A DNA stretch of 64,000 nt, taken from contig CM119270.1 in assembly GCA_051294375.1 (NCBI GenBank), positions 19,541,741 through 19,605,740 of the forward strand. The letters are read 5' to 3'. Below are positions 8,158 to 35,995 of this stretch, in pieces; within the stretch, counting starts at the first letter, position 1, and each line of letters begins with the position of its first letter. Origin of the DNA: Paraspadella gotoi (taxonomy: Eukaryota; Animalia; Chaetognatha). A program made the position numbers and the translations under genes. The notes under the pieces were generated by a model. The model did not search any database, had not been told where the DNA came from, and saw only the letters and a program-made list of their open reading frames with translations.

Positions 8158-8515
8158 GTGGGTGTGGGCGGGAGCTTGGTGGGCGGACTTTTTGGGCAAG
8201 AATAATGTTGGCGGAGGTGTTGGGGAGTTTGCGGAAAGGGAAAATTTGAACACAGTTGTGGGCGGAGTTGGTGGGCTGAAGTTTTGGTTGTTTGTAACGG
8301 AAGTTGTGGGTTCTGGTTTTATAAGCGGAAATTGTTAGTGCCGAGTTGACCGCATTGCCAGTTGTGGACGGGATTTGTAAACTGAATTGTGGATTTATTT
8401 GTTGTGGGACGGGATTGAAAGTTAGTTTGTATGTTAAAATAGCATAAATAAGATGTTATGATTCACATTCTTGCCCTTCGCCTCTTTCCTCCCCTCTTTT
8501 CTCATCTCTTCTCTC

Positions 8516-13542
<5,027 letters not shown>

Positions 13543-14338
13543 CAACCAAGCCGAAACATGTACGTTTTCTCTATGTGAACAAAATTTTTGTTGTATGTAA
13601 TCAAAACTAAACAAAATCTTTCTCTCTTGTAGCTAAAAATTTCTTAGAAAAAGCTAAAATCTATAATAGAAAATGTAACTGGTTGAAAAGTTTCTCGATT
13701 TTTAGGTTCAAACAAATTAAAAAATCTTAAAAACATAAACATTATTTTCCTACGTGATATTTAAATTGATATGTTATATTTTATAGCTCGGTACATATTA
13801 TTTTTTTTATCCAAACCAAAATATGTCTTATTTATTTTTTTTTAAATCAACTCCTCTATTACGAAAGAAAAAACAGAAAAAAAAAAGAGATTTCAACGAA
13901 ATATACAAGAGAGAGAAAGAGAGAGAGATGGAGTGGGGAGAGGAGAGAAAAGAGAAAGAGAATTACGACTAACATTGAAAGCCTTTGATTTTGGTATAAT
14001 AATCGTAATAATTAATTGTAATAATATTAATAATAATGAACTAAGATTCGGAAGATTTAAAATATCGGAAGTCCTCCTCCGATTTTAGTGGGGGGTGGGG
14101 GTGAGGGTTAAAAATAGAATTCGGGAGAGGGGAAGGTAATCAAGGGGGGTCAGGTCGTGGGGGGTGGGGTGTGAGAGACCCGTTCCGAGGGTCAGAGAAG
14201 CCGACGAAGATGGACTAGTTGAGGCGAGAGAGAGAGCAGGTTAGGAAGAGAGAAGAGAGATGAAGTGAGGAAGGGAAGAGAGAGGGAGAGAGAGAAGAAG
14301 AGATGATGAGGACTGAACGAGGAGAGAGAGATGAGAGA

Positions 14339-22864: not shown

Positions 22865-25800
22865 ACAAACAAACCTTTAAAGAAAAAGCCAACCTGGAAG
22901 ATCCAAAGAGGATGTCGACTCCCATCGTCGAGTCGCCCTCATTGATGACGGTCTTGGGAACAACGTAGAGATGACCGCTGCTGGAAGCGCGACCCTGACA
23001 TTGTAATTTATATTGTAAGTTGTAACGTTTAGCAATTCACTTCACTTCATTTAATATATTATTTATATAATTTACAGTTTATTTATTTTAAATCCAAACT
23101 TGTCTCCCCCCCACTCCCAATATATTGACATCAACATTCTACATACAAAATGTTTTCTTGTAGAACTCTGAATTTTAACTTTATGCTTTCTTCTTCTAAA
23201 AACAATATTCTTAAAATAATTTAACCTTTATTCTAATAATTTACTATTTATATATCGTTTTGAATTAAAAAGTAATCCATCTATGCATAAATGTTTCAAT
23301 AATTTGTTGTCAACGAATCAAACGCATGAATATAAATCCCAACCAGCCCGGGGCACCCACCCCCCCTCCCCCTCACCTTGGAATTGCTCGCCTCGCACAT
23401 GTATTCCCCAGCATCCTCCATGGAGACTTTCTGGATGAGCAGATTCCCGTTGGATAGGACGTTGGCGACCGGGACAGGGATCCCATCTTTGGTCCAGCGG
23501 AACTCGGGGAAGGGCGCCGCCTCGGGGGAACAGGCGATGATGGTCTGACTGCCCAGAGCCGCCATCTCGTGGAGAGAAATGAACGGTGGCGAGGTGAGAC
23601 AGGGATGATGTAGAGTGAAATGTCAAATTAAAATTAACTCCTTCGTCAGTGATTACTTTAGATTTTTATTCGGAATTCTTATACATATTTGTACATATTT
23701 CTTGTACATATTTTAATAATTTCAAATTTTTGTTTTAAAAATTTTAATTATTTTTCATAATTTGAATTTTAGAAATTTAATTCTTTTTTCCTTGACCTTT
23801 TCCCTTCAATCCTGTCAACAAGTCCCTCACATTCTTTCAATATTTTTCTTACATTCACCATATACACTATCATACAGTACCACTTTGATTTCCACACTCT
23901 TCCCGCATCTCAGTTCCACCCTTCCCTTCCATCAATCTACAGTTCTTCCCTTCCAAAGCCACAGTACCAACCACAGCCCCAACCACGGCCACTGTCCCAA
24001 CCTCAGTCACTGACCCAAACACAGCCCAAACCACAGCCACACTCCCAACCTTAGCCCCAAACAAGCCCCAACCACAGCCACAGTCCCAACCACAGCTCCA
24101 ACCACAGCCCCAACAACAGCCACAGTCCCAACCACAGCTCCAACAACAGCCCCAACCACAGTCACAGTCCCAACCACAGCCCGACCCACCTTTCGCCTAT
24201 CGATGGGATTCTTGGAGAATGAAGGAGCAAAGGCCAAAACTCGAAGTTGAGCTGAGGTCGCGACGACGCCGTATTTGTTGCTCGCGATGCATTGGTACAT
24301 TCCTGGCAGAATAAGGTCATCTGTTATATAAACTTTGTATAAAAATTTGCATGATTGTATATCTAAAACTCGCTATTTATCTTACTTTAAAATTTGCTTC
24401 TTTTATACATTTTTCTTATCTATTTTTTTTTAAATGTCATCACATAAATCGTTTTTGAATTTAGCACAGTAATTCCTAAATGTATTACTTTTTATCAAGC
24501 NNNNNNNNNNTAAGATTTTTATTATCTATTTGTATCATAATTTTTTTCTCTGAAGTCAAAGAATTGAAATCTGAAGTTTTTTTAATCTACAGTGCATAAG
24601 CTTAATCTGTAATTTCCATTGTAACTATCTTTTTGGGGTGTTTGGTGCATTAGTCATCGTGTTGAATAAATATAAGTATAATTTTTTTTTGTTGTGAAAT
24701 TGCTCCTTGATCTGTTCTGGAGAATTGTGACATGACCTTTAGCAGAATGAAGATAAGCCACAAGAAGATTGCCTAAATAATCATTCTGACTTTATCTCGT
24801 TTTGTCCAGTCTTTTCTTTCGTATTTGTTCTATTTCTGATAAATGTCGAAAATTAGAATTTTAAAAGCCCGGCAACCAACTTCAGCGTCAAACTTTTATT
24901 GATTCTCCTTTTAAAATAGAAATCTTCAATACAGAGACAATTCTCGATTTAGATAAAAACTCTGAATATATATTACGTTTCAACTTTTAATTCCGCCCCG
25001 AATACATTTTAGATTGTGGACGCGTACACCATAAGGAGGGACGCCTTCACGAAAAACCACCCATTAACGTCATGGCCGCCGCCAAGAGCAAAAGCGTCAT
25101 CGATCCGCATCAGGAGACGCAAGCGCGTAAACTCCTGATGTCTGGTGAAAAGAGTCTGCAGAAGCTGGCGTCCAGCCGCGGCCTCGGAGGCGCAGCTTCG
25201 CAAGGAGACATTAACCCTTTGGCCAAAAGATTGGTTCAGTCCGGCAAGCTCTCGACGAAGGATCAGCAAAAGGTAGAGGATCTGGTCACGGCGCGTAACA
25301 AGCACGCTCACCAATGGAATCAAAAGGACGTCCGAGGGCGAGAGGCCATCGTGGGTGAATTGGTGAAGGGAGTCACGGCGTTGGGATTTTATAATTCACA
25401 GGGAAAAGAGTATGCGACGAAGGGGAGTGGCATGTTCGTTAAAAAAACACCTCATCCCTCCCAACAATTTCACGGCAAGCCAACACAGTCACATCCACAG
25501 AAAAAACATACCAGTCCCGGTCATACTAAACCAGTTCATGCACATCATCCCACTCAAGCAAAAACAACTCATTACAAAGAAAGCACCGGACAAGCTAAAC
25601 CAACTAAGCAGACTCCTGCAACGCACGGTCCTTCAAAAGTAAGTCAGGCGCCATCAGCAAGAAAAAAGACGGTTCAAACCACAACCAAGGCGAAAGGCGG
25701 GCCTTCCTCTACTAAGAAAACGTTTCATGACAAGCCAGGTCGTAAATAATTTTGATTTACAAATTAAGATGCAGTTGATCAAACTTTTGAAATGATTTTT

Positions 25801-28800
25801 CAATGAAATGAAAAACACATGGTAAATGTTCGTAAATTTCATATTTATGGAATAAATATAACACCATTGATTCTCCAATGTAGTTGCAATAAATTATCAA
25901 AAGATCTGAATCAGTCAAAGAATCATCGAATTTAAAATTAACACTATAGCTACGTATAATGTTGTATAATCTTTTTTTTTGGGACTCTACGCAGAGATGG
26001 AATCGCCGAATCCTAATTTGTCGCCGATAAAACCGCCACTGACTCATATGCGTCAAATTTTACCTCGGAATATAACTTAAAAATCAATGATTTCATCCCC
26101 GTCATAGAAATAGCCATAGCCGATGAAATTTAAATGCTAATGAATACAACGTTAAAATAATATATCATAAGCATAGATTAAAATACTTTTTGTCAAAAAT
26201 TATTTTTTCGGAGGGTACTAGCCTAATTAAAATTATTATATTACTATATAAAGCAAAAATTTTTTTTTTGAAATCTTAAAATTTTTTAATGGATTCTGAT
26301 AGAGCATAAAAAGTTAAACAAGAAATATAATCACTGCTTTTAAAAATTCTTACGTTTTCTTAATAAAAATTTTAAAAAACTGATAAAATCAACAAAAGAT
26401 GATGATGATAACGATTTTTTATGGTTTTCTTATTTTTGACCAACTTATCATAAAAATATTATTGAAGTAATCCTTTCTTTTTCGTTGTTACTATTAATTA
26501 GAGAATTGACAAAGTTTTTGTTTGCAACGAATTTTATTTATAGTTGAACAGACATGTTTCGACTTGTTTTACAAGTCTTCATTTGATCAACTATCAACTA
26601 TCAATGTCTGTTCATTGTTCAACTATAAATAAAATTCGTTGCAAACAAAAACTTAGTCAATTCTCTAACATAAAAATATTTAAAAAAGAATTATGCTTTG
26701 TGTAGACAACTTTTTATGAGCTATTTGAATCTGGTCTTAAAAGTTAAAAATTCTAAAAAAATTTTTGACCTTTCCTATCTATAAATAAATATTAAAAAAA
26801 TAATTACTAGGGTATAGAGCCATATAAGAAATTTTTTGTCCATTGAAAGTATACTTAAAAATGTATAAATTTTCGTTTGAGCTTGTACTCACTCTAAATT
26901 TTTGACTCACCCCATTGAGTGCGGCTCCCCCTAATAGAAAGAATTAGTTCGAACTCAAAACGGCTTAATGAAATGATCTCGCCATAACTCGGGACCGATG
27001 CATCGGGGATGGCACTCTAGCTGACTCAAACAATATGGAATAGTGAGTTCCAATGGATGAATGTAATTTTAACGATTTTTTTTTTATCTAAAATTTCTTT
27101 CATGTTATCTCCTTCGTTTTTCTTCTTATTTCAAACTCGTTCTTATGTTATACTCTGCCATAACGACTTCCCGGGGCCGACTCTCTCCCGTGCCAGAGAC
27201 AATTTCGATTCGAGACAGGTTTTATAATCGAACGCAAATCTTGAAGAACAAAAAAAAAACAAAAAAAAACAGACACGACATAACTGAAAATAACGAAAGG
27301 GAAAATAAGAAGCATCAAGAAACTGAAAATCGCTAGATTTTATATTTCTCAATTTTCATTCAGTCTGACGTCAAAAGTAAGTTGCAATTCAAAGATTCAA
27401 ATTATACAGATTTTTTTTAATTATTAAATCTCTGTTTAGATTAAACAATATTTGTTTTCAAAGTTTGCATATGCACTGCATTTTATGCAGTTTTAAGCAC
27501 GAAACGATAATCCAGCTTAAATTGTATTTTGATTTAGCCATTCATTGGTAGCCAAACATAATATCTGAAAGTTAAACTGCAACTTTAAGTAGAACAGCAA
27601 GTACAGCTGCAATAGCAACTGCAAGTGCCATGGGTCGCAAGAAGAAGCAGAAGGTCGAGTTCGATCCGCAGCAGGAATCGCGCGTCCGTCAAAGGCTCAT
27701 TCTCGCGGAGAAGAGTCTCCAACGCCTCGTGGAACGACACGGGCTGCAGATTGATCCGGTCAATAAGGTAGGGGGGCGGGAGAGAAGTTTGCTTGCAAAT
27801 CTTAGACAATCTCTCGAGAGAAAATGTATAAAGTTTTAAGAGTTAGAAGTTGAGTTATAAATTAAAAATAACTTATTGTTGATGTTAAAACAACAATTTT
27901 AATTAATTCTTTATCAATCTCAGTGGGTCTTCTTCGACTAATTATGTATGGTTTTTAATTTATTTACTTACATGTATGTAAATCTCCTTTGAATTAACAT
28001 TACATAGGCACTACTCAAAATAATATGAAAATCATCAACAGAGACGATATAGTTAAAATATTTATAAAATTTACTCGCCCGCTTTTTCGCTGCTTTCCCC
28101 AATTCGCCACAACCAATCACCCGCCAATAACCCCACCTATCCTCAACCAATCACCCGCCTATCCCTCCACCTATCCTCAACCAATCACCCGCCTATCACC
28201 CCACCTATTCTCTCCCATTCCCTAGCCAATCACCTAAACAATCTCCTACTAATCCCCTACCAATCTCCAACCAATCCCCACCTCACACCCCCCCACACTC
28301 CAATCAGGACATCACCGCTCTGGTCGGTCAACTCCTCGAGTCAGGCCAACTCTCTCGCAACGAGCGGCGCCTGGTGGAATCGCTGCGCCTGGCGCGGAAT
28401 CGCCACGCCCACAAGTGGAACGAACTCGACGTTCGGGGTCGCGAGGTCATCGTGGGTCAGTTGGAAAGAGGCGTGACGGGTCTGGGCTTTTTCAATCGTT
28501 GGGAGTGGGACGTCGTGGTGGTGGCCGTGGGTGCTAGAGGCAGTGAGAGAGGGGCGGTGTCTGGGGGCAGGGACACGCCCACATCCGGGGGAGACGCTTC
28601 CGTTTCTGACGACATTTCGTCTTCGGCGGAGGATGAATATTCGCCGGAGGACGATTCGCTGCTGGACGGTGGAGACGTCGAGCAGCAAGAATGCTGCGTT
28701 ATTCTTTAGAGGATGTTGTCTCATTCTTGCTGAAGTAAAACGGATTTACAATCGGCTAATTCGCGTGAAACTAAAATCGACTATTGTCACACTACAGGAA

Positions 28801-29305
28801 ATGGTCTTAGCTTCGCATTCAATTTGACTGTAAAAAGCCCATTTGTCTATTACTTTCATGATCTTATATCGTAAGACAAAAAGTCATTATTTTCGTTTTT
28901 CTATTCGTATTTTTGTTTTTTTATGTTTATGTTTTGTTTCGTTTTGATATGATTTTTTTTATTTGAACTGCTGTCAACACATTATTTAAAAATTGAGAAA
29001 TTTTGTGTTTATAAACAGTTTTTATATTTATTGCTTTTAGGTAAATAACTAACTTAGATAATCTCTATATAAGAGAGAGAGGGAAAGAGAAAGAAAAAGA
29101 AACAGAAATAGAGAGAGAGAGAGATATAGAGATATAGAGAGAGAGATAGAAAGAGAGATTGAGAGATGTATAATGCGACGATCATAAATGGTCTTCAGTT
29201 AGAAGTTTGGTTTAACCAAAGTTCCCTTCTCTCTTTCGGTCATACATCGATATTCAAAGAAAGAGAGAGAGAGAGATTAGGAAAAAAAACTGGTTTTAGC
29301 CTTCT

Positions 29306-29381
<76 letters not shown>

Positions 29382-31196
29382 CAGTTTCAAAGTTATTTTT
29401 GAGAAAAAGCGAATAATTTATTCCAAATGATTAATATTCAACTGTTTATACTATTCTTACGAGTTCAAAAACCTTTTTCCCAGAAATGTTGAAAATGAAA
29501 GTTCTGGGAAATGTAAAGCTTACTTCGATTGCGTCGGAAAAGTTAAGTTTACGAAAAGTCACAAATGTTACAAGTTTTACAACATAAAATCAAACTTTGA
29601 CTGGTAAGTAAAAGACTGATTATTGAATTTAAAAGTACTCATGAAAGTTTCAAAATTACTTGTTTCACCATCTTTATTTTTGATTTTTTAGGTTTAAAAT
29701 AACTATTATTTATGATTTTATTTATTTGTTAAAATATTTTTGTGTTAAATATTTAAATATGAAATTGGTACAAGCAATGTAAAAATTATCCATTCATTTA
29801 ATAAACAAGCTATCTTTGGACAGGCTTTGGTGGTTTGATATTACTGATATTTATATTATATTATAATATTATTAATCTGTTTGGGATGGGAAAGTGAGTG
29901 TTGTCTTATGGAAATAGAGGGTGCAGCTACACAACACAAGGTTAGATTACTTTCTGTTCCAGTTTTCTAATATATATCGTACATCCTTCCTGTTGGAAAA
30001 TCATTAATGAGAAACTCATAATATCCACAAGGCCGAACAAAAAGGGGGGAATATATAATTTTTTGGGGGGATTAAGGTTATATTGTATGATTATTTTCAT
30101 CATAAGGATAACACTACTTAGTAGAATTGTAGGTTCTGATAGGGATACATACTGGGAAAAGTTTCATAGGGGCACCTTTATATTTCGAATGTAATTTTAA
30201 AGTATTTGTTAAAATATCTTTTATTAATTTTTTAAAAAGCTCACTCTCGGCTTCGGGAACCGTATATATTTCTATATCAAAGTATAAATTCAAATAGGTC
30301 ATCAGTCATGGATTTCGGCTCTATTTCACAAAAAAAAATTTTAAACGTTAACAAATCAAAAAGTGTCCTTTGTTTCTCAGACTCCAACTTGTGATACTTT
30401 TGTAAAATTATGTTTGTACGTCCCTCAAATTCAAAAAGTAGTTTTTAAGTTTCGCATTATGTTTAAATAATTTATTTATTCCTTATCCAAAATTACTTTC
30501 CGCCAGAACGTTTATAAATCTTTTACTCTTCCGTCTCCTTCCAACTTCCAATGTCCTTCGTCGACGCCGACCAAGAGGCTCGCGCCAGGCAGCTCGTCAT
30601 TCTGGGAGAGAAAAGCCTGGAACGCCTGATGACCCGTCACCGAATGACCCGCGATCCGGGAGTCAAAGACCCATCTGGTGGAACAGCTCGTGAATTCGAG
30701 AAAACTGTCGTCAAGGGAAAGACGACAGGTGGATGCGTTGCGGATGGCGAGAAACAGACACGCCCACGATTGGGACGGACTCGACGTCAGAGGGCGCGAT
30801 GCAATTGTGAGAGCTGGAGAGGGTCGTATCTGAATTGGGATTCTACGATCCGCGGAATGCTGATTCCGTTGTACGAATAGTGGAACCGAAGCGAGCGAAA
30901 CCAGTGGTCATCCCTATACCGGAACAACATATTCGGCAAAAAGATTCGTGTTGCGTCGTATTGTGACTCGAAATTCCTTGAGAGCAGATTGCGTCTGTAA
31001 ATGCAATGACTGTGAGACTAGGAAATCTCACGATATTTATTAGGTTAATCTTCATAGTTCGACTTATGTTGATTTGTCAATAACTAGAAAAATAAAATTC
31101 TCATATAATTTTTAATTTGTTTAAGAGAGCAGAGTTTATTTATTCTTTAATCGCATAAAAGGACTTAATTTAGGAACAAACGATTTTTTTGTGTGT

Positions 31197-31244
<48 letters not shown>

Positions 31245-34200
31245 AAATCTTCACTCCGAAATCAATGTCTGTAAGAGTGAGTTGTGATAATAGGAGATAA
31301 AATGAAAATACAAATATTTTCTGAAATGCTCAGTTTTTAAAAATAATCAGAAATCATTTCAAACAGATAACAGCCCTTAGATAACTCCCACTAAGTGATA
31401 AGTATTTTAAAAAGTTCTTATCTTTTTTTAAGGAAGCAAATTCCTGATTTAAAAAAAAATCAATATTATTTTTTAACAAAGTCGATGGAAACTACAATTC
31501 TTTCCCGAAGCTTTCCCTTAAGTAGCGTTCGCTCGAATGGACGTCGGGATTTTAAATATTCTCCAAACAATTCTCCCAACATCTCAAAATTTTCTTTCGA
31601 TCAGCCGGAAGAAAAAAAAAAAGAATTCGAAGTGTTCCGTGTCAACTCCGTACGTATGTTGGTGTCTTTATATTTTTTACTTATGATGTACATAAAACGA
31701 ATAAGATCTTAGTTTAAATTTTCTCGCAGAAGCCACTGGAAAACACTCTGACATTCTTCTTCTCAGTTCCACCTTCTTTGCGCGTCAGAGGAGAAATTTA
31801 TAGCATCAGCTATAGAGCCCGACGGTACTGGGTTTTTGACCTTGACGATTTTTTGAAAACACCTGGACTGATATTGAATCCGTTTGAGTTTACGATAGAA
31901 AAAACTCACTCGGACCTCATTCAAGAATTTCAAATTTCATACCCGATGAAAGACTCACTATTTCCCGACGTTTATGTGAGACTGACTTGTACGCGTCCGC
32001 GAATACCTGCAATTAGANNNNNNNNNNTGACTTGTACGCGTCCACGAATACCTGCAATTAGAAGCGATACAAAAATATACCGCCTCGATGAAAAAACCCG
32101 CGAAAAAATACAAAAGTGTCTATCGGAAGATTTTTCGTTTCTCTTAAATTCTGGGGACGGCGCCGACGTCACTATTGAAGTCGATGGCCAAGAATTGAAG
32201 GTTCATCGATTCGTTCTCAAAGCCAGATCAACTTATTTCGCCCAAATGTTCTCAAGCCGAATGATCGAGAACAAAACCGGACGAGTTAAGATCGTCGGCA
32301 TCGGATCCGAGGCATTTGGGGTCATCTTGAAATATCTCTACGCTGGAACCGTGGCCGAAGGCTTCGACGACTACGCTTTGGAGATCTTGCCCAAGGTTGA
32401 AGAAATGATGATGATGGAATTGAAGAATATTTGTGTGGATGCGATGAGAAAAACGATCTCGTTGGAAAGAGTTTGTGATTTTCTTTGCGCTGCTCATATT
32501 TTTAAAATAGAGGATCTCAAGAGGTTGTGTTTGAACTTTGTCAAGAAAAATGCCAAGAGTGTGACAAATACTGAAGGATGGAAAAGATTAATTAAAATTC
32601 CGGATTTGATATCTGAAGTTTTCATTTTTGTGATAATTTCTTAATTTCTCGCTCATCATTTCTATTTCTTTTTCCTCAAAAAAATTATCACTTGGCTCAT
32701 ATATATATAGATGTTATTTGTCTGACTTCGTCACATTCAGCTTTAAAAGAGTTATTATTATTACTTATTGATTTACTTTTGAATATTCTATATTCTTTCC
32801 CTAATGATTAGGCTAATCAATGTAGACGAAAATTTTTTTGGTACATACCTATAATTTTATTTTTATTTCTTTTCCTTAATTAACAAAACACCATCCTTTT
32901 ATCGTGTAACAAAAATTATCAATATTTTTTTTTAATAGTTAAGTAAAATAAATATTTTTATACTTAATGGTTTTAAGAATCATGCGTTTAAATTAGCTAG
33001 GCGAGTTTCGTTACAACATAATTCGAGTTTTGATGTTATTAAGTAACTAGATCAATATTATTTCGCAACATTCAAAACGTAAAACCGAGGGAGAAGCTTT
33101 CATCTCAAACTGTCTCTCTGTTTTAAGTTTTTAACGATTGAGAACAGCAAAGCAGTTTTTTTTATAATTCGGTGCATAATTTAAGCGGGTCATTTATTTT
33201 TTTCCCCTCGATTTTACGATCAAATAAAAAAAATATCACTATCGAGTTTTAAAAAGAAAAAAAGAAACGAAACTGACTTCAGATTGGCTTCTTTAATCGA
33301 CAGACGAAAAAGAAAATTATTCTGTAAGTACATTTGTAAACAGTTATTTTTCTTTCAAATTGTTTTCTTAAATAAATGTTCATAACCCTATTGAATGTTA
33401 AAATGTTTACTAGGTAGTTTTTGTTGGCTTTTGCGGATGCGGTAAAAATGACCTATTATGGTGGAATAAAATTTACCAACCGGTTACTGCAGTCTTTCCA
33501 CTTCCAACCCAAAGGTCGGGGGTTCTAGCCCGGTATCCGCTTTCCCGATTATTAATCGATTTCTAACGATAATCACAGTCCCTTCAGCACTTCGATGCCC
33601 TGAAAATCAAGTCCTTTCTAATCCACCCTTTCCCTCCCTTTTTTTTTTTAGCGAAATGTCTAGTTTCAATCCGCCACCACATCATTTTAACTCAACAAAG
33701 TTCCAAATCGACCCCGACCAAGAAGTTCGCGTCCGTCAACTCCTCATTCTGGGGAAAATGAGCTTGAAACGACTGATAAATCGCTACGGCCTGAATCCTC
33801 TTCAATTTGATAAGGACATCACCCTTTTGGTCAGGGAGCTTGAATGTTCTGGAAAAATGTCACCGGAGGAGCATCGGTGGGTGAATATGCTTCGGTCGGC
33901 GCGAAACAGTCACGCCCACGATTGGGATAACGTCGGAAGGCGCAACACAATCATGACGGATTTGGAAACTGCCATTTCTGAAATGGGATTTTACGATCCG
34001 CGGAATGGAGATTACTTCGAGAATGTAGTGGAACCGGTTTTCCAACCGCCAACACGGTCACCAATGGAAGGTTCTGTCTCAACTCTGGTAGAGCCACATA
34101 CTGTACTGACAAAACAAGTGGAGCCCAAAAGATTCTATGAATTGCGGAACAGAAATTACTTTGTGAATACAGTGGAACCGGTTTCTCAGTTACCGGAGTG

Positions 34201-35995
34201 CCGATTACCGGAGTACAGATTGCCGGAGCACCAATTTACACAGTACCAATCGCCAGAGCAATCAAAGCCCGTATTTATTCCGACAACCAAGAACACAACG
34301 CCCATCAGCAATATGATGGCAACCAACCAATGTTGCACTGTGTCTCCAGTTTTGTCGGATTGGAAGGCTCATTCTGTCAAAAGCATTGTGGAAAAGAAGA
34401 GAGCAGATTCTGTCAAGTCACCAATATGGTCACCAATGGAAGGTTCTGTCTCAATTCTGGTAGAGCCAGATCCTGTACCGACAAAACAGGTGGAGCCCAA
34501 AAGATTATATGAATCGCAGAAAGGAGATTACTGCCGGAATATAGAGGGCTTTGGGCCAAAGCGCTCAAAGCTGAAAGGTCTGTCGACAGTGTGCGATGAG
34601 CCCAAGCATGTTGAGCCCCAGCGGGCTGACCTCAAGGGCGTTGAGCCCAAAAGCTTAGTGGCCAAGTGTGCAAAGCCAGAACGTTTGTCGACAGTGTGCG
34701 ATGAGCCCAAGCATGTCGAGCCCCGGCAGGCTGACCTCAAGGGCGTTGAGCCCAAAAGCTTAGTGCCCAATGGTGCAAAGCCAAAATGTCTGTCGACAGT
34801 TTGCAATGATCCTAAGCGTGTTGAGCCACAGCAGGCTGACCACAAGGGCGTTCAGCCCAAAAGCTTTGTGCCCAAGTGCGCAAAGCAAAAACGTCTGTCG
34901 ACAGTGGGCGATGACGCAAAGCCCAAGCGCGATCAGCCTAAACAAATAAAGCCGACAGTCACAAACGATGAGCCCATTGGAAACTTGGCGCCAAGAGAAC
35001 AATGTTGCGTTATAATGTGACTCATTGACTTACCAATCGATGAGTCGAATCGAACAGTCAAAAAGCAATGACTCAAAATTTAACTCACCGTCGTTTTTTT
35101 CCCACGTTGAGATTTTTCTTCTAATTTTTCCTTAGTTATTTCAATGTAATAAGATGCGACTGACTATCAAATGTTTAATTTGGACATGATTTTTATTTTA
35201 AATTATTATTACAATGATATTAGATGGTAAGCATAATATTTTTCACGTCCAAAACAAATACGTACGTAATATTACGTACGTTATTATTATTATTTGTTTT
35301 GGACGTTAAAAATATTATGCTTACCATCTAATATCATTGTAATAAGTTGGTAATATCATTGAAGTTGTAATATCATTGTAGCAGGATTACGCTGATTAAA
35401 ACGAGTAATTAAACTTTAACTTAAAGGTACAAAGGAAGGCCCTCTTTTCCGAAAGTCCCCCGTTTCAACTTGAATTCAGAATTAAGTTAGTGGTTTGGGA
35501 TAGTGAGTGGATTTCGAATGAGGTTAGCGATTAGGTTAGGGATTTGATTAAAGTTTTGGTTAGGGTCTCTCACCCGAATCGCTTTCCACGACTCCGTTGA
35601 TCCTTATTGTGTTTCTTTTCATTGTGATCCTCTTAAGCAAGCCGTGCCGTCGGCGCACGTGGGGCAGCGATAGATCTTCGGTGTTTTTGAGCCAAACGTA
35701 GACCGGCTCGGGGTGCGCGCGAGCTGTGCACGTCCAGGTGAGATCGCGCCCGGAGTCGACGTGTTTGTCTTGCAGCGGAATGTCGAAGGTGGGTTTCACT
35801 GCGTGAAGTAGAGAGGAATTCTTATAAGTTTTATTGTACATTTTTTTAATAAATAACTTTTGTTTTTTTTATTTTTTGTTTATTTTGATTCTTTTTTTAA
35901 TGATTCAATTATCAAATTTCGTCGTTCTAACATTTATATTTTTTTAAATTTATTTTATTTCTTTATTTTATTTCTTTATTTATTTATTTATTTCT

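Follow-up and report, generated by a model that had tools for sequence, protein, structure and literature searches.

What are four small related genes doing inside an intron of a much larger gene, and from which protein family do they come? They lie in a stretch of 64,000 nucleotides from the chaetognath Paraspadella gotoi (GenBank assembly GCA_051294375.1, contig CM119270.1, positions 19,541,741 to 19,605,740; the whole stretch is called the window below), animal DNA with a G+C content of about 35% and long AG microsatellites. A sequence-only reading of the window had proposed that these plus-strand paralogs, here called copies 1 to 4, are genes for standalone HEPN-like ribonucleases (RNases), most of them bearing membrane lipidation signals. 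We consider it highly probable, on the basis of predicted models and converging evidence of which each line is individually sub-threshold, that the domain shared by the four copies is of HEPN origin. Our preferred reading of the family as a whole, namely that it is a locally duplicated, RNA-cutting family with a truncated HEPN domain, that two copies are prenyl-anchored, and that its members are fast-evolving defence RNases, is plausible and falls only a little short of probable.

The four loci differ in structure. Copy 1 (25072 to 25749) encodes 225 residues, consisting of a HEPN-like core (about residues 8-109), with the motif RNKHAH at 25294-25311, and a basic tail of 116 residues (23 Lys and Arg, 3 Asp and Glu) that ends in PGRK. 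Copy 2 is made up of two exons: exon 1 (27630 to 27767; 46 codons) starts with MGRKKKQK and contains the QExxxR helix, and exon 2 (28308 to 28709) contains the motif RNRHAH (28395-28412), an acidic tail and the CaaX end CCVIL. The frame of its spliced product of 179 residues depends on the 540-nucleotide GT-AG intron in between (27768 to 28307; GT..CAG, phase 0). Copy 3 (30551 to 30966) is broken, being spread over three frames that hold, respectively, the ATG at 30551, the motif RNRHAH (30750-30767) and the end GFY..CCVVL, with frameshifts at about 30668 and about 30810. Copy 4 (33656 to 35020) encodes 454 residues, with a core at about residues 17-114, the motif RNSHAH at 33902-33919, and a tail of 340 residues with the CaaX end CCVIM, enlarged by internal duplication (a 105-nucleotide unit present 3.3 times at 34566-34914). 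Within this tail, an internal NQCCTV (34310-34400, plus strand) resembles a former CaaX end that was overrun by the duplication-driven extension. Copies 2 and 4 may have extra upstream coding exons, and a profile built from the core pieces did not find a fifth copy within the window. The motif positions are exactly those given by the sequence-only reading, and an intact core together with a CaaX end is encoded by copies 2 and 4 only.

The similarity among the four core sequences goes far beyond chance and marks them as homologous. Copies 1 and 4 share 38% identity over 99 residues (blastp, E 1.9e-23), pairwise identities between the cores range from 39 to 59%, and 26 of the 86 columns shared by the four paralogs are invariant. 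R-N-x-H-A-H is present at all four loci, at three of them in frame with the ATG, and Q-E-x3-R, located in the long first helix, is an invariant acidic element in all copies. These two elements of the domain pattern described earlier therefore hold throughout, although the leucine following QExxxRxx is replaced by valine in copy 3. The residues of the last helix group the paralogs, with copies 1 and 2 sharing one set and copies 3 and 4 another, and the tails of different copies are unrelated to each other. The ratio of the proportions of nonsynonymous and synonymous differences (pN/pS) is 0.33-0.57 in all six core pairs, at pS values of 0.51-0.79, and such low ratios combined with high pS point to long-lasting purifying selection on the cores.

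Several features of these cores agree with what has been described for the HEPN superfamily. According to the available text of PMC3710099, the HEPN motif is defined as Rx4-6H with a polar residue (N, D or H) after the arginine, and it closes helix 3, ahead of the loop that leads to helix 4. R-N-x-H-A-H conforms to this definition, and Q-E-x3-R, present in all four copies, matches the second conserved acidic residue of HEPN domains (typically Ex3[KR], in helix 2). AlphaFold gave a confident helical-bundle model of the copy 1 core (predicted local distance difference test, pLDDT, 84; predicted template modelling score, pTM, 0.75), with helices at 5-28, 40-49, 55-77 and 80-101; the third helix carries the motif (68-73) in its C-terminal half and is followed by one last helix. 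The model of copy 4 (pLDDT 75.9) has the same layout, its motif (83-88) ending helix 70-89 before one last helix. In both predicted models, the motif is thus located at the HEPN position.

The models were then compared with 48,161 chains, of which the 20 best matches for copy 1 and the ten best for copy 4 are considered here. For copy 1, five matches align at least 90 of the 102 residues, and every one of them is a HEPN chain: Csm6 4rgp (Z 7.7, root-mean-square deviation (rmsd) 3.5, 96 residues aligned), Csm6 6tug (Z 7.5, rmsd 3.7, 98 aligned), 2hsb (Z 7.2, rmsd 3.5, 93 aligned), 5yep (Z 6.9, rmsd 3.5, 96 aligned), which we take to be a HEPN toxin, and the sacsin HEPN domain 3o10 (Z 6.9, rmsd 3.3, 93 aligned). 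The other 15 align 60-86 residues. For copy 4, the four matches with at least 90 aligned residues are again all HEPN chains, namely 1wwp (Z 7.6, rmsd 4.7, 99 aligned), 4rgp, 6tug and 2hsb. Sequence-based searches lead in the same direction. The Pfam families matched by seven core pieces at E values up to 10 are all HEPN-type (4/4), the best E values being 0.012 for HEPN_Swt1, 0.042 for DUF4145, 0.13 for HEPN_Apea and 0.17 for HepT-like; a profile search of PDB sequences aligned ARNRHAH with LRNKVAH of Csm6 (E 1); and among the named clusters of the ESM Atlas, Csm6_HEPN came first at 0.89, which is a lead only. These sequence matches depend largely on the motif itself and cannot be counted as evidence separate from it.

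A number of results weigh against a HEPN assignment. Firstly, the match ranked first was a non-HEPN chain for both models (ISG75, Z 8.2, 85 aligned; TatBC, Z 7.6, 76 aligned), and Z values below 8 are common for helical bundles, so that the range of 6.9-7.7 lies within background. Secondly, three Foldseek searches, of the PDB with two models and of viral structures, gave no match at E 0.001; among the structure searches, it is the chain search, with HEPN chains as the sole near-full-length matches in its top rows, and not Foldseek, that favours HEPN. Thirdly, HEPN_Swt1, HEPN_Apea, HepT-like and DUF4145 did not reach their Pfam gathering scores (12.2-15.2 bits versus cut-offs of 23.1-27.5), and these scores are not independent of the motif because they cover mostly the motif helix. 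ESM Atlas scores were below 0.9, and an unfiltered search with copy 1 gave unnamed clusters first. Fourthly, the glutamate of GEKSL, the stretch that answers to the E..L helix of the sequence-only reading, is a lysine in copy 4, the invariant acidic element being instead that of Q-E-x3-R. Finally, the motif is the best-conserved block (six of seven columns), but a column shuffle equals this in 12% of 20000 trials; since 30% of the columns are invariant among just four paralogs, this conservation is only suggestive (p 0.12), and a motif significantly more conserved than the remaining core was rejected on these grounds. No single test is significant. In addition, PADLOC matched no family and NCBIfam one unrelated family (E 0.13), and a homodimer prediction for the copy 1 core, in which the alignment was not used, gave a score of 0.01 against a mark of 0.32, which speaks neither for nor against binding.

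These results raise the question of whether the proteins are HEPN proteins at all. They might be orphan helical bundles with a prenyl tail, in which RNxHAH resembles the HEPN motif by coincidence or serves as a histidine motif for metal binding: every similarity score is below significance, R-x4-H is short, and H-A-H-x-W could bind metal. However, in a structure ranking that is blind to the motif, run with two separate models, no chain in the top rows other than those of HEPN proteins was matched over nearly its full length, and the motif falls where HEPN proteins have theirs. We hold this explanation to be quite unlikely. The HEPN-like fold and motif of the earlier reading are thus supported, by lines of evidence that converge but are each sub-threshold.

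If the domain is indeed derived from HEPN, it appears to be a shortened version of the canonical fold, an up-down bundle of four helices and 100-120 residues in which an insert separates helices 2 and 3. The alignments with HEPN chains start late, at residue 17 of 119 in 1wwp, 23 of 126 in 2hsb and 33 of 133 in 5yep; since the first 16-32 residues of these chains remain unaligned, the canonical HEPN helix 1 seems to be absent from the models, which could abolish activity and is a further point against a functional RNase. Based on the alignment ranges, the long first helix probably corresponds to HEPN helix 2 with its E-x3-R, and the short helix to an insert. One might thus suppose that loss of helix 1 left a HEPN fold that is catalytically dead or decaying, serving as a scaffold or decoy, in a cluster that is heading towards pseudogenes.

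Variation among sequencing runs bears on this possibility. The stretch is present in nine runs of three studies, four of which were compared (X1, X5, X7 and X9), and the single-letter differences discussed are taken from 40 of 180. The second break of copy 3 (about 30810) occurs in 4/4 runs, so that in none of them can copy 3 reach the last helix or the CaaX end; the first break (about 30668) is found in X5 and X7, is absent from X1 and occurs in both forms in X9. The possibility that the breaks are assembly errors was rejected on account of this distribution. In copy 1, a contig of X9 carries a stop allele, Trp82-to-stop at 25317, two codons past the motif histidine, where X1, X5 and X7 keep the tryptophan. 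Null forms thus exist at two of the four loci, and copies 2 and 4 alone are intact throughout the runs compared. Within codons 1-108 of copy 4, three of the differences considered change an amino acid. The earlier picture of four RNase genes, most of them lipidated, accordingly holds for copies 2 and 4, which are intact and have a CaaX end; copy 3 is a pseudogene, and copy 1 has a stop allele and no CaaX. The broken copy 3 and the stop allele of copy 1 also fit decay, which counts against our preferred reading, and, taken with these changes in copy 4 and a fold that seems to be missing helix 1, they are what a dying cluster might look like. On the other hand, all four loci retain R, N and both H while synonymous sites are near saturation, and copies 2 and 4 are open through to their CaaX ends. 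On balance, we think that a dead or decaying HEPN cluster is quite improbable. Copies are probably born and lost quickly.

The CaaX ends are the second distinctive feature of the family. Directly before their stop codons, copy 2 has the CaaX sequence CVIL and copy 4 has CVIM, whereas copy 1 has none; CaaX codons are kept at three of the four loci and are translatable in two, the CCVVL of copy 3 being out of frame. Seven of the 1105 stop-to-stop segments in the window have a CaaX-like end, and three of these seven belong to the loci described here, which count as a single origin because they are related by descent. From the sequences, CaaX is likely to be ancestral and to have been lost in copy 1, as both branches (copies 1 and 2, and copies 3 and 4) carry one. 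A methionine at the last position of CaaX favours farnesylation. A leucine at this position favours geranylgeranylation, according to the available text of PMC8357416. By these rules, copy 2 would be geranylgeranylated and copy 4 farnesylated, with the adjacent cysteine as a possible second lipid site. The start of copy 2, MGRKKKQK, was also considered for N-myristoylation; it matches the consensus poorly, and no such modification is claimed.

All four paralogs are nested in a host gene on the opposite strand. Translation of its exons shows that the minus strand of the window encodes a contactin, with an N-terminal C-type lectin exon followed by Ig and FN3 exons; a lectin-type contactin architecture is an invertebrate trait. 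The intron concerned spans 24303 to 35573 on the minus strand (11,271 nucleotides, about 11.3 kb) and splits one Ig domain, with a donor (GT) after 35574 and an acceptor (CAG) before 24302. The exon that ends at 35574 (..WLKN..RINGVVESDS) and the one that starts at 24302 (GMYQCIASN..) are joined through G+GA into DS-G-MYQC, and because the GT/CAG junction restores the Ig motif D-x-G-x-Y-x-C, we conclude that 24303-35573 is a single intron. A minus-strand scan of the intron gave no Ig-type exon, and a host exon that would split the cluster was rejected on this basis. The claim that the four plus-strand paralogs are nested in an intron is thereby confirmed. Two gaps of ten N inside the intron (24501-24510 and 32018-32027) are both bridged by run contigs, the first by a contig of one run and the second in 4/4 runs, which join 31982 to 32028; both gaps are overlap artefacts with duplicated flanks, and the second falsely breaks the frame of a BTB gene. 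This SPOP-like BTB/BACK gene (31718 to 32644, plus strand; Pfam BTB, E 1e-21; BACK_BPM_SPOP, E 4e-4) lies between copies 3 and 4 and is, like the four paralogs, wholly contained in the contactin intron. SPOP-like BTB/BACK genes are frequently lineage-expanded. A link between this gene and the HEPN-like genes, for example through degradation of their products, is putative only. Elsewhere in the window, an Eph receptor tyrosine kinase gene, represented by its 3' exons (kinase and SAM stretches; about 8500-13600, plus strand), converges on the contactin gene. The intron also contains high-copy non-coding repeats at about 26100-26935, 29700-30140 and 33500-33540, with summed contig depths of thousands to hundreds of thousands; the first includes a 53-nucleotide inverted repeat (98%; 26498-26550/26616-26668) and resembles a nested miniature inverted-repeat transposable element.

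Are the genes transcribed? The evidence comes from X9, one run of one study; no run with this stretch is recorded as RNA, and the RNA nature of X9 is a guess. In three X9 contigs, the match to the genome breaks off exactly at an AG acceptor, namely at 25011 (copy 1), 28306 (copy 2) and 31730 (the BTB gene). For copy 2, the contig departing at 28306 has 145 further letters, a few more than exon 1 is long, while contigs of DNA runs continue straight through this acceptor; the X9 depth of 3.58 in the bin 28010-28400 compares with 3.57 from the contig at 28306 alone, which means that the intron of copy 2 is uncovered and is not proof of splicing. For the BTB gene, the contig begins at acceptor 31730 with 182 more letters, and 31650 is a candidate donor. 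For copy 1, the contig joins 24930 to 25011 via 21 letters similar to those with which the high-copy repeat ends at 26933, after which the genome reads GTGAGT, and this joint puts an in-frame stop before the ATG at 25072. In this region (24845-25013), the 5' untranslated region of copy 1 has likely gained a splice donor from a polymorphic repeat insertion in the X9 individual. X9 contigs are also found in plain intron and across a contactin exon edge; for this reason, the X9 coverage of copies 3 and 4 is no sign of transcription. The RNA-based check of expression thus yields a hint, from X9 alone, that copies 1 and 2 are transcribed and spliced, and says nothing for copies 3 and 4.

Relatives of the family were sought widely. 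A word search of 5.8 billion proteins with copy 1 gave 176 candidates and none at E 0.01. A search of the same collection with the core alignment gave none at E 1, either among 409 candidates near its length or among 7992 scored at longer length, the latter being weak evidence. The sole HMMER match over 1.84 billion representatives, a 721-residue tandem-repeat protein matched in 12 stretches away from the motif, was rejected as spurious. Single copies used as queries against viral, metagenome and prokaryote contigs, and tblastn searches of plasmids and phages, found no homolog, and no donor for horizontal transfer was named by searches of these collections, which hold few animal genomes. The family is unplaced because no relative was found in the collections searched. 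The lineage-restricted expansion proposed earlier is supported by this absence of homologs, in collections that are thin in animals.

How does the family compare with known systems? Like members of the HEPN superfamily (Csm6, the HepT/HEPN-T proteins 1wwp and 2hsb, Swt1-like, ApeA-like and DUF4145), the core has about 100 residues and is all-helical in its predicted model, with R-N-x3-H ending the last helix but one, a long helix before it that bears an invariant E-x3-R, and a short insert helix. In contrast to them, it reaches no family cut-off, apparently has no first helix, is accompanied by a C-terminal CaaX, and has no sensor, antitoxin or second domain. By prediction it is a HEPN-type RNase, and it passes the cut-off of none of the named HEPN families.

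The statement in the sequence-only reading that animal HEPN domains usually sit in multidomain proteins omits solo expansions. As far as the available text of PMC3710099 goes, these comprise KEN in Oikopleura and the Swt1 family in Daphnia, with 46 copies, both read as defence RNases, and the available text of PMC9646362 reads a solo expansion of DZIP3-like HEPN proteins in the pearl oyster in the same way. The present family resembles all three in the lineage-specific duplication of motif-intact genes and in copy-number turnover. However, no sequence link to them was found, the best HEPN_Swt1 match (E 0.012) being under the cut-off and the DZIP3-like and KEN Pfam models giving no match to the core pieces at E values up to 10, and the available parts of these accounts mention no lipid anchor. 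The four copies known of the present family all come from the window. A position at membranes has precedents. Ire1 KEN and C6orf70 carry their HEPN domain at a membrane, on its cytosolic side, with a proposed role in RNA degradation at the endoplasmic reticulum (ER) membrane (PMC3710099, available text); they are ancient, conserved proteins with a transmembrane helix and large partner domains, whereas here we find a lineage-restricted mini-protein with a predicted prenyl anchor. In OAS1 p46, CaaX targeting raises antiviral activity and gives access to viral RNA on endomembranes (PMC8357416, available text). The likeness is an analogy only, in that CaaX sets an RNA-directed defence protein on the endomembranes where positive-strand RNA viruses replicate. 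ZAP-L is a further prenylated antiviral RNA protein. OAS1 p46 and ZAP-L are sensors or adaptors of unrelated fold, whereas here the predicted nuclease itself bears the CaaX. Among the papers listed by searches of the open literature, no prenylated HEPN protein and no minimal HEPN lacking helix 1 was found, a scope that leaves aside subscription journals and the supplement of PMC3710099 with its family alignments. Solo animal HEPN expansions and transmembrane-tied HEPN proteins are therefore already known, and it is the CaaX-bearing, truncated HEPN that was not found in print.

If the preferred reading as defence RNases is followed, the proteins may work as follows. The R-N-x3-H motifs of two subunits would join into one metal-independent active site, as in the HEPN family; characterised HEPN nucleases require two juxtaposed motifs, according to the available text of bioRxiv 10.1101/760058. 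The prenyl anchor would keep copies 2 and 4 on the cytosolic face of membranes, and the target would be RNA in the vicinity, such as ER-bound mRNA or the contents of viral replication compartments. Because there is no sensor domain, expression, location or a partner must provide control; dimer formation might be governed by membrane crowding, or by a partner protein through the gain or loss of a helix. The functions proposed here, RNA cleavage and a part in antiviral defence or cell death, are inferential, and it tells against the preferred reading that the present data are silent on infection, induction and cell death. A bolder version, in which the family would be a first prenylated HEPN class with three core helices and no sensor, would make the lipid anchor and membrane crowding the switch; it would cut RNA at viral replication membranes or kill the infected cell, and anchored, unanchored and truncated paralogs would pair to tune or damp activity. 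We regard this version as distinctly unlikely.

On the other hand, HEPN-derived RNases or RNA-binders might have a non-immune task, such as membrane-tied mRNA turnover or a role in the germline or sperm, and might be lineage-specific duplicates that landed in the intron like the BTB gene did. No sensor or immune domain is fused to them or encoded nearby, the co-nested gene is SPOP-like, the cores are under purifying selection without an excess of amino-acid change, and the role in ER-membrane RNA degradation proposed for the KEN and C6orf70 HEPN proteins (PMC3710099, available text) is of this kind. However, the missing conserved ortholog in our searches, the unrelated tails and the null alleles at two of the four loci would be unusual for housekeeping genes, and we consider a non-immune role unlikely.

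The defence HEPN proteins of animals are predictions in the literature cited here. The family described here offers a self-contained candidate of 100 residues with a natural anchor switch, CaaX being present in some copies and absent in another, that is easy to express and assay. To our knowledge, many invertebrate lineages have no OAS-RNase L arm. If the proteins turn out to be inactive or to have a housekeeping role, the locus would be one more orphan gene cluster. If the preferred reading as defence RNases is true, it would reveal what minimal size suffices for a HEPN nuclease and whether being tethered to a membrane is enough to activate it, and it would add a lipid-anchored effector class to the cell-autonomous immunity of animals.

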